Below are positions 10,801-50,751 of a DNA stretch of 50,751 nucleotides, in pieces. The position numbers and the translations under genes are program-made. How positions within the stretch are numbered: the first letter of the stretch is position 1; the number at the start of each line of letters is the position of its first letter. The DNA comes from Escherichia phage P817, in sequence record MZ826699.1; one strand, 5' to 3'. The notes under the pieces were generated by a model. The model was not told the DNA's origin. It was given only the letters and a program-made list of their open reading frames with translations, and did no database searches.

Positions 10801-11519
10801 AGATATTACTCCTGATTGGTGGTCTTCGTTAAGATGGGTGCAATACTACCAGCGTGGTTACATGTTATCAAGTGTTATTGATGCAAATGTTCGACTTAGT
10901 TACGTTTTGCGACCTCTCGCCCCAGATATAGCTCAATGTAAAGTCTGCGTATAGTTTGTAGATAAGGATTTTTAGCAAATGGGCCCCTACATGACCTTTT
11001 ATTCCTACAATGTCGTCATATTCCTACAGGTGTAGGAAAATATCATAGAAAACAATCGCAATATCACATATCCACTATCTACATTATCTACATATATATA
11101 TATTAATAATAATAATATAGATAAATGGTTATTATATAAGGATATTTTAATGTAACCATGGCGTAATTCTGCGTGATAAGCGTACACGATTCCTACGGTG
11201 GGCTTCTTCATCTACACGGCGTAACTTTTATAACGCGTATGCGCTAGAAACGTGTGGCGGGAAAATCCTACCAGGCGATCAGGGGATCAGACTTCACCCC
11301 ATCATTCCCCCCATCAATGAATCATTGCTCAATTCGCAACAATCGAAAACATCATTGCATCGGAAGCAATATTGCTGTATGTGCAATAGTCATGATAATC
11401 ATTGCAATAGCTGCAACAATCCATAAATCCAACGAATGGCACTTTTTTCTAATGACCGATCAGTTGTGATTCGCTATTGTTACTCCATCGAAACGAGTGA
11501 AGAGAACTGGAGAAAATAA
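10801..11519. promoter_or_regulatory. AT-rich divergent control region with palindrome TTCCTACAGGTGTAGGAA, direct repeats (ATTCCTACA, ATCTACAT, ATCATTGC x3); candidate early promoters or origin
   Basis: Non-coding, flanked by divergent genes; about 70 bp shares about 80% identity with 30710..30805. Confidence 0.45.
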
Positions 11520-15872: not shown

Positions 15873-15906
15873 AAAAAGGGAGCCTTTCGGCTCCTTTTAT
15901 TTTTTG
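15872..15906. terminator. bidirectional intrinsic terminator (GGAGCC-TTTC-GGCTCC flanked by A7 and T-rich tract)
   Basis: Perfect 6-bp GC stem with U-tracts on both strands between convergent genes. Confidence 0.7.
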
Positions 15907-16283
15907 CGTCGTTCCAGCCAAATTGAAAGAGCAATCATCAGAATGCCAATGAACAGGAATACCAGTCCGGCAATCAGATTACCTTTCGAGTCATCGTTCC
16001 TGATCTCAATCTTATCAGCGATGATGGTGTCAGCCTTGATGCTTGAGGTGCTGACAGACTTACCGTTTGACGTATCAACCTTTCCTACCTTTGAATCTTT
16101 GATAGTGGTGTCGTTGTCGTTTGACTTATCCACCTTTCCGGTAACGCCTACCGTTTGCTTCACGTTCTCAGCCCCAGCCTGCGCACTGATTTCTGGCTTG
16201 CTGCCAATTAAACCAGTCAGCGCAGATGTCGCCGAACAACCTGATAACACGAACATCATTAAAATAAATAGCACCTTTTGCAT
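15897..16283 (-). CDS. unimolecular spanin (T1 gp11-like): lipoprotein with C-terminal transmembrane helix
   Basis: Start at MQKV (RBS GAGGA); lipobox FVLSGC; C-terminal TM LIAGLVFLFIGILMIALSIWL; adjacent to lysis genes. Confidence 0.6.
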   Translation of the reverse strand: MQKVLFILMMFVLSGCSATSALTGLIGSKPEISAQAGAENVKQTVGVTGKVDKSNDNDTTIKDSKVGKVDTSNGKSVSTSSIKADTIIADKIEIRNDDSKGNLIAGLVFLFIGILMIALSIWLERRKK

Positions 16284-16341
16284 AAAATCCTCATCTAGTT
16301 TGTGGTATGGTTTGATCACTATACATTGCAAATGGTGAAAA

Positions 16342-16806
16342 ATGAACTGGAATGATATTTTTTATTTAAAAGATGGTGTTTTAATGTGGGGTAAAAAAAC
16401 CTCAAGGAGAGTGTCACTAAATTCACCCGCTGGCAGCATACAAAATAGCGGGTATGTAAGCGTAGGCCTTGACGGTAAAAGATATTACGCACATAGAATA
16501 GTGTGGGAAATGCACAATGGAAAAATACCTGACGGTATGTTCATTGATCACATAAATCACATAAGGCACGACAACAGAATAGAAAACCTCAGATTAGTTT
16601 CAAGATCAGAGAATATGAAAAACCAGAGCTTAAGGATTGATAGCACAAGCGGATTTACTGGAGTAACTTACAGGAAAAGGGATAGTGTATGGATAGCTCA
16701 AGATGACGGATCTCATTTAGGTAGTTTCAATTCATTTGAAGAAGCAGTTAAAGCTAGAGAAAGGTATAATTTAATCAATAACTTTCATGAAAATCACGGG
16801 GCTTGA
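16342..16806 (+). CDS. HNH homing endonuclease with AP2-like DNA-binding domain
   Basis: HNH motif HINHIRHDNRIENLRLVSRSEN; AP2-like GFTGVTYRKRDSVW...FEEAVKARERYN; AT-rich, opposite strand to flanking lysis genes. Confidence 0.75.
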   Translation: MNWNDIFYLKDGVLMWGKKTSRRVSLNSPAGSIQNSGYVSVGLDGKRYYAHRIVWEMHNGKIPDGMFIDHINHIRHDNRIENLRLVSRSENMKNQSLRIDSTSGFTGVTYRKRDSVWIAQDDGSHLGSFNSFEEAVKARERYNLINNFHENHGA

Positions 16807-16817
16807 CGCCCCGATTT

Positions 16818-17312
16818 TTATTTTAGTTCAGCTACACAATATTCATATTCGAACGCCCGTCGATTCTTAAGCCCCTTTGACCGCTCTTTCTTTCCGGTCT
16901 TCGGATTCTTAAAGTAAGTCCAGGACCATAGCTGATTGCAAGCCTCAAGTAGTTTACCCTGGTTAGTAAGTCTCAGCATAGTGGAATTACGGTAAGCACC
17001 AGTGCCAACGTTGAAAGTGAAGCTGTACATTGCCGCACGGAAGTGATCCGGCACGTCAACCTTAATCCGCTTATCAACCTCACGCTTGGCGATGTCGATA
17101 TGCTTATATAGCAATGCGTCGCATTCTCTTTTGGTGTAGGTCTTGCCGAGAATAACGTCAGGTCCAGTGATGCCAGCGCACACCGTCCATACTCCGGCAA
17201 TATCCTTATATGGATTGTACTCAACGCCTTCAATCTTCTCAACAAGTGAAGGAGTTAGCGATAAAGCTACACCAAAAGAAATACTAGCAAGCGTCCTGTT
17301 TACGCTCATCAT
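16818..17312 (-). CDS. endolysin, T4/P21-type lysozyme with N-terminal SAR domain
   Basis: E-x8-D-x5-T catalytic spacing ([16 protein letters not shown]); weakly hydrophobic N-terminal [17 protein letters not shown]. Confidence 0.7.
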
Positions 17313-17539
17313 TATTTACCCCTTAGTTTAAGCGCCGTCGGCAAGTCTCCTGAGTCAAGCGCCTGACGAATGGCTTTGCTATCCTGATATTTCCAGTAAG
17401 CACCCCAAATGCCAAAACAAACGAACAGGATGAACGTCGCACCCGCGATCGCCAGTTGGCCCGTTGCAGCGCCAGCGAAAGATGCCCCGCCAGTGCCAGC
17501 CGTTACAGTGTTTAATACCTCTTTCATGTGATCCACCAT
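17312..17539 (-). CDS. holin
   Basis: 75 aa; hydrophobic segment [19 protein letters not shown]; charged C-terminus; directly upstream of endolysin. Confidence 0.6.
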
Positions 17540-30430: not shown

Positions 30431-30970
30431 CTCTTTAATCCTCGTTCGTTGTTGATGCTGGTAACTATACGCGCTTGGTTGCGTTAGTCAAGTGGTTACA
30501 TGTAGATATTTGTAATCACGTGTATGCAATGGCGTCAGTTACATAAAATGGCTATCCAGACCAGCTATAGCTTGATGTAAACGGCGTGTATATCGTGTAT
30601 ACCATTTTTCGCGGAGGGTGCATTGGTGTATGCGTGATTAGATACTGTATGAATATACATATTAGAAATTTATAAGCGGAACACTCTATAGAAGTAGTTA
30701 CACGATATACACAGTAATATATATAATAATAATAATTATAGTAGAAGGTTGATATATATAGATATTTTAATGTAACTATCGCGTAACTAGGCGTAACTGC
30801 GCGTATATCATTTTTCGCGGACGAGATTGCATACATCGAGTTACATCGGTTACGTGTATATAGTTGCATTTTCATACTTGACACCAAAAAGCACGAATTG
30901 CTAAAGCTCAATTAATGGTTAGTGTATAGTTACCTCATCGAAACGAAAAACACTTAATAAGGATTCAAAA
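30431..30970. promoter_or_regulatory. AT-rich divergent control region homologous to 10801..11519
   Basis: Shares TGGTTACATGT and about 70 bp ...AATAATAAT...GATATTTTAATGTAAC... with region 1; internal repeats GCGTAACT x2 and TATATC...ATTTTTCGCGGA x2. Confidence 0.45.
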
Positions 30971-48186: not shown

Positions 48187-49464
48187 TTATTCCTCGTTGT
48201 TCACCTGCGGGTTAATTGGTTCGATTTCTTCAAGCTCCGGCGCTGGGCCTTGCATCTTGATAAAGTCTGCGATTGCCTCAAGTGTATCACGCGCTTCGTC
48301 ACGGTCAATAACCTGATCAGCCAACAGCTTTGAAAGCGATTCAACGTTATTCTTCAACGTCTCGGATTGTTCTTTCTCGCTTGGCATTGATAGTGGCTCG
48401 AATCGAACTGACCATTCCTCTTCCTGCACAATCATAGGAATTAACCACTCCAGAAGCGGCCTGTAATACTCGTTACGCTTGCGGTCAATCATCTTGTAGA
48501 AAGTCTCAAGCGCTGTGTTCTGGCTCGCTGACACGCCGCCTACGTTCTTATTCTTGAGGATGATCTCATGAATCTGCGAGTAGTTGACGATGCGGTCCAT
48601 CTTCTTATCCAGGAAAGCATCAACGCCGCCAATGTCTGAGTTAAGGACGTCGTATTCTTCGTCGGTGGCATCAATGCCAATCGTTCGGCCTACGCCGCTA
48701 TTGTCATCAACCTGAGCTAATCGCAGTCGAGCCGCGTAACGCCCTTCGTCATCGTCGCACAAATCAGCCAGTCCTTTTGCTTTCCATACGCCTTGCTGCT
48801 TACGGCGCAATAGCTGAGTAGCCAGTTCTTCACAGTAGTTGTAGTCCAGGATGGCGTCAATCAAGCCCTTACTCAGCACCGATGCGCCCCAATCGTTATT
48901 CTGCGCGCGAAGTGAGTTAGGTACGCTCTCGCCGCCGTTAACATAGATTCGCGTGTAGTGTACGTCGTATTCCGGTACGCTTCCGCCAGGGTTAATGGTG
49001 TAAATCTTCGGCATACCATAGCGAGGGTTGCGTGCGTTCTTCTCGCGGTCCTTGATGCGGATCTGCTCTTTCTCGTACACTCGGATTGATTCAAGCTGCG
49101 CACCTTCCTTGATTGGTGATGTCAGGAGTCGGTTGTCACGGACGACGGCAACGATAGCGGAACCACCATAAAGCCGCTCCCATGAGAACGCCTCGACAAT
49201 CTGCTTGTTCAGCTTCATGCCATCCCACAAAGATTTGAACGCCTTCTCATCCTTCACCCCGTCCAGGCCGAATCCAGGGAAAACCATTTCCTCTGGAATA
49301 ACATCGACAATTTTCTTAGCCATAGGATCATCAATGTAAAACTGCGTCACATACATCTGATCGTATAGCGATGCAAGCGCGCCGCCTGCCGTACCTTCAC
49401 CCTTAAACGTCTTGTTGTAAGAGTCGGTCTTAACGCTTTTTTTACTCATCTGTTTTTCTCCCAA
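48187..49464 (-). CDS. portal protein (likely ATG start at 49449, MSKKSVK)
   Basis: 425 aa immediately downstream of terL. Confidence 0.7.
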   Translation of the reverse strand: MGEKQMSKKSVKTDSYNKTFKGEGTAGGALASLYDQMYVTQFYIDDPMAKKIVDVIPEEMVFPGFGLDGVKDEKAFKSLWDGMKLNKQIVEAFSWERLYGGSAIVAVVRDNRLLTSPIKEGAQLESIRVYEKEQIRIKDREKNARNPRYGMPKIYTINPGGSVPEYDVHYTRIYVNGGESVPNSLRAQNNDWGASVLSKGLIDAILDYNYCEELATQLLRRKQQGVWKAKGLADLCDDDEGRYAARLRLAQVDDNSGVGRTIGIDATDEEYDVLNSDIGGVDAFLDKKMDRIVNYSQIHEIILKNKNVGGVSASQNTALETFYKMIDRKRNEYYRPLLEWLIPMIVQEEEWSVRFEPLSMPSEKEQSETLKNNVESLSKLLADQVIDRDEARDTLEAIADFIKMQGPAPELEEIEPINPQVNNEE

Positions 49465-50751
49465 TAAAAAAGGCTAGGTTGTTAGCCTAGCCATTATACA
49501 TTATTTGCGCATTCCCGCTAATCGTTTCATTCGTGCTACCGGATCATCAAGCAAGTTCATTTCGAAGTTGCCAGCATCAACAACGTTATCCACGATGTCG
49601 TCGTGAGGATGGCTATCGTCAAAGGTGAAGCCGACCAGTTCCGCTTCCATTTCAGTAAGCATTGGGTGTGATTCAGGAAACACGATTCGCCCTGCTTTCA
49701 TGATTGGTGCTGCGTCCATTGCACGCGTAACTTTATCGGTATCTCGCTGCACTGGCGTGATGTCAATCGGAAGCTTCTTGTTGATTGACTGAATCAGGCC
49801 CGTACCGCTCGCCTTGTCTTCAATGTAAACCTTGCGTAGTGACGTCTTGTTCTCCTTCGCCCACTTGAAGCAGTTTCCGTAAAAGTTAAGAGCCATCGTT
49901 TCAAGGTCCGGCGCTTCCCACTTACCGCGAATGCCGTCTATGAAATATACGCGATCCTTATACTTGCCCCACAAAACAAAGACGCTGTAGTCGTGTATTT
50001 CCTCTGCCTTCTGCGCTGTATCCGCAGTGGTGAACAGGTATTCGAAGCGATCCGGTTTTGGCATGTTGGCTTTTTCGCCGTCGCCGTAATACTGGAACCA
50101 GTCAGACTTAAACGCGTTACCACCAAGCGCGATGGGCTTCTGCTGATACTGTGATTCAAACGTGTAAAGGTCAGCTTCGCGCAACGCCAGCAGGCTCTCC
50201 GCGCTCTCCTTTGCAGGCCAGAAAGAGAAGTGCTCAACCCCGTCAATCATTACAGATGGAGAGGATAGCACGTCTCTGTCAAATTCCTCTTTCAACCAGT
50301 CAGGAAGCGTGTCTCTGTATTCCTCAGTTACCAGCGCCGGAATGATTACCTGCTCAAACTTCATGCCACCCATACCGCCATTCATCAGGAACCACGTCGA
50401 GTCGTTAACGTGCAGTCGCTGCTGCACAACAACGCATGGCGTTCTGTCAGTCATACGACGTGATCGCACGGTGTTTTTTAGCAGTGTATGAGCCGCCTTG
50501 CGCTTAACGGACGAATACATGTCTTTCGGTTTGTCGGGGTCATCAAGCGTTAACATTCCGGTAAAGCTCCAGGGTTTACTGGGGTCTTCCATGTACCCGC
50601 CACGCTTACCAGTTACCTGGCCGCCGATCGCACGTGATGTTAACGTCAGCCACGCCTTATCGTTATCGTTAAGTGCGGTAATATCGCCACCGGACGCCTT
50701 AGCAAGTTTGGTAGGCCATAGCTCCTGGAACTCATCGCAACCGATAATCTC
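49385..50751. repeat. 1367-bp terminal duplication of positions 1..1367
   Basis: Direct sequence identity at both window ends. Confidence 0.85.
49501..50751 (-). CDS. terL: terminase large subunit, second copy, 3' portion (truncated by window end)
   Basis: Identical to 117..1367. Confidence 0.7.
   Translation of the reverse strand, partial: EIIGCDEFQELWPTKLAKASGGDITALNDNDKAWLTLTSRAIGGQVTGKRGGYMEDPSKPWSFTGMLTLDDPDKPKDMYSSVKRKAAHTLLKNTVRSRRMTDRTPCVVVQQRLHVNDSTWFLMNGGMGGMKFEQVIIPALVTEEYRDTLPDWLKEEFDRDVLSSPSVMIDGVEHFSFWPAKESAESLLALREADLYTFESQYQQKPIALGGNAFKSDWFQYYGDGEKANMPKPDRFEYLFTTADTAQKAEEIHDYSVFVLWGKYKDRVYFIDGIRGKWEAPDLETMALNFYGNCFKWAKENKTSLRKVYIEDKASGTGLIQSINKKLPIDITPVQRDTDKVTRAMDAAPIMKAGRIVFPESHPMLTEMEAELVGFTFDDSHPHDDIVDNVVDAGNFEMNLLDDPVARMKRLAGMRK

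Follow-up and report, generated by a model that had tools for sequence, protein, structure and literature searches.

In the SegF-type intronless homing of phage T4, a free-standing homing endonuclease gene (HEG) sits between conserved genes and the adjacent gene ends of the recipient are replaced, much as at the locus of Escherichia phage P817 described here. SegF is a GIY-YIG enzyme, co-oriented with its neighbours, whereas the P817 enzyme is of the HNH type and is encoded on the opposite strand, in a cassette from which the downstream gene takes a new signal peptide. HEGs that pair HNH with AP2 are recognised in phages, and clustering of HEGs at boundaries of genetic exchange is also known (PMC10448857, PMC5714182). 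As cited in these two articles, HNH-AP2 homing endonucleases occur in phages, cyanobacteria and ciliates (Magnani et al., 2004); the phage enzymes are encoded by small free-standing genes, with the HNH domain at the N-terminus and the AP2 domain at the C-terminus, as in P817, where the AP2 domain nevertheless falls below the Pfam cutoff and has a shortened beta2-beta3 hairpin. The IPA-HNH HEGs and "HEG islands" of the vibriophage ICP1 (Barth, Dunham and Seed, 2023; PMC10448857) also combine HNH and AP2, and the features reported for them, namely genetic-exchange boundaries, other HEGs near conserved genes and frameshifted copies, are all seen here (PMC10448857). Membership of the P817 protein in the IPA-HNH group was considered and rejected: IPA-HNH domains are described as too divergent for Pfam HNH_3 (PMC10448857), a domain detected in the P817 protein at E = 5e-24, so that the architecture is common to both and the class is not.

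I-HmuI of Bacillus phage SPO1 (1u3e) has an N-terminal beta-hairpin region and a His-Me finger core in common with the P817 protein, and its D-H...N...N residues align with those of P817 at a sequence identity of only ~17%. It differs in being encoded by a group I intron and in carrying NUMOD/HTH-type modules, whereas the P817 protein is free-standing and of the AP2 type. The HNH genes of T1-like phages (endZ of Tls, and those of Sf12, LPSTLL and XT34) belong to the same protein family, with 41-55% identity to P817, but are different alleles and mostly occupy other genomic sites. The gene of Escherichia phage vB-EcoS-XT34 (XT34; L002, 1844-2335), of a second HNH-AP2 lineage, is found at the same junction and in the same orientation as that of P817, with an equivalent hairpin over its stop codon and 41% identity; this sharing of the site may reflect either shared ancestry or independent capture.

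The window analysed here is the whole 50,751-nucleotide stretch of record MZ826699.1. Phage P817 is a T1-like, Nouzillyvirus-like coliphage of the Drexlerviridae; a literature search for this phage found no relevant paper. We conclude that the open reading frame (ORF) at 16342..16806 is very probably a free-standing HNH_3 (I-HmuI-like) homing endonuclease gene with an AP2 domain, carried on a self-contained cassette of ~577 bp and proposed to home. This interpretation is correct but already known, the gene being so labelled in GenBank, and the element is typical of a class that is very common and recognised; no new kind of system is revealed. Its interest, which is modest, lies in the cassette-encoded signal peptide of the spanin and in a clean population signature of mobility.

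The HNH-AP2 reading frame within the lysis cassette

The lysis cassette of P817 is encoded on the minus strand. Its first gene is that of the holin (17312..17539; PHROG_2877, 2e-34), and genes homologous to it match PF27028 Phage_T1_holin. The endolysin gene (16818..17312) encodes 164 aa with a SAR-type N-terminus (Phage_lysozyme, 2e-34), and the u-spanin gene (15897..16283) encodes 128 aa with a lipoprotein signal peptide, the lipobox LSGC and a C-terminal transmembrane segment (PHROG_1804 "Rz-like spanin", 1e-47). A bidirectional terminator-like hairpin at 15875..15898, shared with convergent plus-strand genes and conserved in the related phage CJ19, ends the lysis cassette.

The HNH-AP2 ORF (16342..16806, plus strand) encodes 154 aa from an ATG with a Shine-Dalgarno-like GGTG 5 nt upstream. 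A first-pass annotation made from the sequence alone had placed it between the minus-strand SAR endolysin and u-spanin, with coordinates and domains that agree with ours. Its product is identical to UAV84690.1 of Escherichia phage P817, which bears the GenBank label "HNH homing endonuclease". The clear HNH motif that the same annotation had noticed in this ORF was borne out by a match to Pfam HNH_3 over aa 48-92 (84 bits, the cutoff being 24.8) and by a match to PHROG_99 "HNH endonuclease" (2e-57). The nuclease core (16483..16617, aa 48-92), of the His-Me finger type, was delimited from Pfam, residue conservation and a profile match to I-HmuI, the family profile matching 1u3e at E = 2.5e-8 over aa 1-99. 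In an alignment of 63 family sequences, D69, H70 and N94 never vary, and conservation is at least 90% at N82 and N91; all five of these catalytic-type residues are present in the P817 protein and align with the active-site region of I-HmuI, the first two together with N82 and N91 lying inside the HNH_3 core and N94 just past it (codon 16621-16623). The beta-beta-alpha-metal core that characterises HNH_3/I-HmuI-like His-Me finger endonucleases (group 2 in PMC5714182) is thus present, and on sequence grounds the P817 protein is a canonical HNH_3 member of the I-HmuI-like class, presumably active as a nuclease. No paralogue of the gene was found by tblastn within the window. An intron- or intein-encoded endonuclease was also considered and rejected: the ORF is intergenic, lies on the strand opposite to both neighbours and has no Rfam intron at E <= 1, and a search for group I introns and other structured RNAs gave no Rfam match near threshold.

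The C-terminal AP2-like domain (16651..16776, aa ~104-145) is predicted to consist of three beta-strands and one helix. Taken alone, the P817 protein scores 15-18 bits against Pfam AP2, below the gathering cutoff of 33.3, with E = 0.03 for the whole protein and 0.003 for its C-terminal part. At the family level, Pfam AP2 is matched by 37 of 63 homologues (best E = 1.3e-8), and the family profile also picks up, over aa 102-150, the AP2 domain of WRI1 (7wq5; E = 0.0017). The structure predicted with AlphaFold (mean pLDDT 92) has three strands and a helix at residues 108-145. Its top Foldseek match is I-HmuI (probability 0.99); AP2 domains are also among its best matches, with AtERF1 (1gcc) at a probability of 0.97 and 2.8 A over 48 columns, along with 7wq5 and 3igm, and no Foldseek match of the P817 model reached E <= 0.001. 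Relative to the family consensus, the beta2-beta3 hairpin of P817 is ~4 residues shorter. The C-terminal AP2-type fold, sub-threshold in the P817 protein alone, is clear at the level of the family and of the modelled structure. The AP2-like domain previously proposed for this ORF thus gains support from the family profile, the homologues and the model, while the Pfam score of the protein itself does not reach the cutoff. Endonucleases of the HNH_3/I-HmuI-like group carry an appended module for sequence-specific DNA binding (NUMOD, HTH or AP2), and the predicted AP2-type domain supplies one here.

Cassette borders and the rebuilt 5' end of the spanin gene

In a pairwise alignment, homology between P817 and CJ19 ends at window position 16255 and restarts at ~16833, so that ~577 bp in P817 (16256..16832) stand in place of ~78 bp of the CJ19-type endolysin/spanin junction. 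This inserted segment, delimited from the CJ19 alignment, carrier divergence and GC content, is absent from the closest relatives. Its composition is deviant, as expected of an acquired HEG: GC content is 36.6% in the ORF and 35.9% across the insert, whereas the genome averages 47.1%, which places the insert among the lowest 0.18% of equal-sized windows (z = -3.6). The ORF had been described beforehand as AT-rich, with local composition suggested as a check, and these values confirm it.

The insertion is not cleanly intergenic, the first ~19 codons of the ancestral spanin gene being in effect replaced. The spanin of P817 starts at an ATG at 16283 within the inserted DNA, and its first codons (16256..16283, minus strand; MQKVLFILM...) provide a new n- and h-region. 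The resulting N-terminus, MQKVLFILMMFV followed by LSGC, is encoded antisense where the cassette is AT-rich, at its left end, and a GAGGA motif precedes the start by 4 nt. Between the spanin and HNH starts lies a divergent spacer of 58 bp (16284..16341) with two Shine-Dalgarno-like motifs, GAGGA for the spanin on the minus strand and GGTG for the HNH gene on the plus strand. This type of spanin N-terminus was found only in genomes with the HNH gene, and none of the 68 loci compared had it at an empty site; the mature spanin, starting at the lipobox cysteine, is conserved throughout. On the other side, the last ~5 codons of the endolysin gene are homologous but diverged (CJ19 ...CAGAAATGA, P817 ...CTAAAATAA), and the gene ends with TAA in P817, as opposed to a TGA overlapping the spanin ATG in CJ19. 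In XT34, the spanin has its own replacement N-terminus, MFLQKMLLCSVIL-LSGC, and the ends of both the spanin and the lysin genes are rebuilt relative to the empty-site relative ETEP102. A selfish gene can thus break into a translationally coupled lysis cassette and still spare the gene downstream. For annotators, this means that the spanin start lies inside inserted DNA, and the element should be masked or accounted for in phylogenies or lysis-cassette engineering of such phages.

Across the Drexlerviridae (window 16210-16255, loci L001-L068), the signal-peptide region of the spanin is hypervariable. The DNA right after the lipobox (CSATSALTGLIGS) is nearly invariant, even among otherwise diverged phages. 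This conserved block adjoins the left border of the cassette and is a candidate recognition site. We found neither a target-site duplication nor a conserved terminal inverted repeat at the cassette ends. A perfect 9-nt inverted repeat made of A and T only (16260-16268/16817-16825) lies a few bases inside each end; it was rejected as a terminal repeat, its right arm being altered in the L006 allele, and is probably due to chance.

Spanin expression downstream of the insert

The insert was said earlier to split the lysis operon, and indeed the start of the spanin gene is located 534 bp downstream of the endolysin stop, past a hairpin and the antisense ORF, compared with the ATGA overlap in CJ19. 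The hairpin (16797..16813; CGGGGC-TTGAC-GCCCCG, with a stem of 6 bp, all G-C) has a loop that contains the stop codon of the HNH gene; on the minus strand, the hairpin is located 4 nt beyond the endolysin stop. It is followed by T-runs on both strands, ATTTTTATTT on the plus strand and TGATTTTCAT on the minus strand, the plus-strand run being the better one, and its folding energies are -16.1 kcal/mol (z -3.8) and -13.5 kcal/mol (z -2.3). It looks terminator-like in both directions, seemingly stronger for the HNH strand, in line with the bidirectional terminator that the first-pass annotation had placed on one side of the gene. In one protein of the P817-type cluster (P0131, 160 aa), the stop codon is lost and translation reads on through the hairpin (...ENHGALRPDFI).

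That the spanin must be expressed either by read-through of the antisense insert or from a promoter of its own, as had been proposed, is a logically sound alternative. Partial read-through of the hairpin toward the spanin is plausible, because only TGATTTTCAT follows it on the minus strand. For neither the HNH gene nor the spanin did a sigma-70 scan reveal a convincing promoter (4 sites, 4.0 expected); two candidates, at 16603-16576 (minus strand, inside the HNH ORF) and 16259-16288 (plus strand), were rejected, both being altered in the L006 allele. An 11-nt inverted repeat (16272-16282/16327-16337) pairs the start-codon region of the spanin with the Shine-Dalgarno motif of the HNH gene. The long-range stem so formed, which would mask the ribosome-binding site of the HNH gene and the spanin start, was likewise rejected: it belongs to the minimum free energy structure in P817 and L006 but does no better than shuffled sequence, with z of only -1.0 and -2.0, and XT34 is without it.

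The cassette may have a further role, as a compact invasion module fit for overlapping junctions, which would bring a portable spanin start, ribosome-binding site and signal peptide and uncouple the spanin from holin and endolysin. We regard this as rather doubtful; if true, the hairpin and antisense transcription would change lysis control in carriers. The 41%-identical allele of XT34, with its like layout, hints at a recurrent solution rather than a by-product of co-conversion.

Distribution and probable mobility of the cassette

Comparison with relatives that lack the insert had been suggested as a check. In CJ19, the flanks are 97.8% identical to those of P817, the 577-bp segment is absent, and the endolysin stop and spanin start overlap by 4 nt (ATGA); the nearest relatives (CJ19 and others) have an empty site between flanks ~97-98% identical to those of P817. 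A search of IMG/VR with the spanin as probe gave 59 relatives, all of them without an insert at the endolysin/spanin junction. Universal presence of the gene with normal composition, which would have told against mobility, was thus not observed: relatives are empty and the GC content is deviant. The closest records of the phage collection are members of Nouzillyvirus (Drexlerviridae), and of the best 14, from 13 distinct phages, XT34 alone carries an HNH gene at the junction. No record in the phage-collection DNA holds a P817-type cassette, the best protein identities there being ~50-55%. The P817-type allele forms a cluster of 14 members at 90% identity or more, the next homologue being at 53%, and the gene was found at the identical junction in all 17 metagenomic carrier loci examined (L005-L009 and L069-L080). 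The locus therefore shows what is typical of a HEG: close relatives either have the gene at a fixed site or have that site intact and empty. In the wider HNH family, homologues occur in 3,629 phage records, usually at other sites; this abundant family is hardly characterised biochemically, and P817 offers a ready system for testing HNH-AP2 homing in T1-like phages.

The carriers also give the cassette a history unlike that of its flanking genes, to which recombination in the flanks could contribute. In 15 of the 17 carriers, the cassette differs from that of P817 by 0.17-1.73%, as against flank divergences of up to 12.8% (spanin, L075) and 10.2%/14.7% (endolysin/holin, L073/L074). Between P817 and L005, for example, 2 of 577 cassette positions differ versus 32 of 839 flank positions (Fisher p = 8e-6). 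The stretch over which carriers hardly differ (~16252-16843) matches the borders that the CJ19 alignment gave independently: flank differences set in at positions 16251-16256 (left) and 16844-16860 (right), within 4-12 nt of these borders. Moreover, the flanks of the HEG-less CJ19 and L010 are closer to P817 than those of most carriers. In most carriers, the cassette thus appears far younger than its flanks, with sharp borders. This contrast could partly stem from frequent recombination of the flanking genes rather than from movement of the cassette; the apparent co-conversion tracts are very short, less than ~25 nt on each side, which is unusual for homing. A frameshifted copy was found in L008 (2832-3297) and L009 (1035-1500), from two independent samples: a G inserted in a GGG run (+1, window ~16459) leaves an ORF of 98 aa (P0126, read on 3 contigs). 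It is probably a decaying copy, of the kind that belongs to the gain/degeneration/loss cycle of HEGs. The first-pass view of the gene as a mobile free-standing homing endonuclease is accordingly strengthened by the empty sites, the deviant GC, the young cassette and the decayed copy. With many metagenomic carriers, sharp borders, much older flanks and empty-site relatives, the P817 cassette is a clean worked example.

From a mechanistic point of view, we propose a course of events in which nuclease activity, target site and homing are inferred from the established behaviour of the family (PMC5714182, PMC10448857). The cassette is self-contained, with a ribosome-binding site, the ORF and a terminator-like hairpin, and lies reversed at the endolysin/u-spanin junction. 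In a mixed infection with a HEG-less relative, the AP2 domain would bind the target DNA and the HNH protein would nick or cut at or near the intact endolysin-spanin junction of the relative; recombinational repair templated by the carrier would then transfer the cassette to the broken genome. The carrier allele would itself escape cleavage, because ~78 bp around the junction are replaced. Since the ancestral genes overlap (ATGA), the original spanin start and signal peptide were lost upon insertion. Read antisense, the AT-rich left end of the cassette provides a replacement ATG along with a Shine-Dalgarno motif and a hydrophobic signal peptide that continues in frame into the conserved lipobox, and the spanin is therefore still intact.

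Selection on the gene can be read in another way. Comparison of the intact ORF with the L006 allele gave a pN/pS of 0.07 at pS = 0.53, and the ORF is therefore under purifying selection, the protein being maintained. In the L006/L007 clade, the cassette has diverged by 13%, roughly like the endolysin, and this level of divergence indicates long vertical residence. Such strong purifying selection, two allele clades 13% apart at one site and the co-option of AP2 domains as regulators elsewhere (PMC10448857) would also suit a resident, domesticated and immobile HNH-AP2 protein that benefits the phage, by exclusion or degradation of co-infecting relatives or as a DNA-binding regulator, and that is inherited vertically with sporadic loss. 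We consider this unlikely, however: all 59 IMG/VR relatives and the closest isolates lack the gene, most carriers hold a sharply bordered cassette that is many-fold younger than the flanking DNA, none of the catalytic residues has been lost, and competitive exclusion would in any case involve the same activity as homing.

It is much less probable that the gene is ancestral at the junction and was deleted in relatives. Decay and loss do happen, as the frameshifted copy in L008/L009 illustrates, but the endolysin and spanin genes overlap or abut without an insert across very diverged Drexlerviridae (spanin identity down to 49%), the GC content of the insert is 11 points under the genome mean, and the cassette-linked spanin N-terminus is found nowhere without the cassette; independent precise deletions, each restoring the ATGA overlap, would be implausible. 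A packaging-associated or other housekeeping HNH gene (of the terminase-partner type), or a transposon/IS-type insertion, is the least credible reading and hardly merits consideration: HNH proteins serve DNA packaging in some phages (PMC5714182), but the terminase large subunit is encoded at 117-1703, ~15 kb off instead of adjacent, the protein is HNH_3/I-HmuI-like with an AP2 domain and not of the packaging group, and the insert has no transposase ORF, target-site duplication or conserved terminal inverted repeat, and no intron or other Rfam RNA.

Other putative accessory genes and the ends of the window

Further HNH_3 genes are variably present in relatives, in the interval from the DUF3987 helicase gene to the spanin gene and beside the exonuclease gene. 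They were located at 1886-2347 and 5709-6194 in L006, 569-1051 and 1386-1847 in L073, 1036-1518 in L075, 4398-4922 in L008, 2824-3300 in L004 and 1035-1313 in L003; none of these extra genes of the helicase-spanin and exonuclease region occurs in the P817 window. The region behaves as a "HEG island" with presence/absence polymorphism, which fits the picture drawn by Barth et al. (PMC10448857).

Elsewhere in the window, two small minus-strand ORFs (11005-11211 and 30552-30911) lie in further low-GC patches, with 30.4% and 34.7% GC, respectively; neither matches a PHROG, and either may be an additional accessory gene acquired by the phage. The window ends are an exact direct repeat of 1,367 bp (1-1367 and 49385-50751), so that the C-terminal part of the terminase large subunit is present twice (full gene 117-1703, fragment ORF 49501-50592). 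This repeat is either the terminal redundancy of headful packaging written into the record or an assembly artefact; without the repeated end, the unique length would be 49,384 bp.
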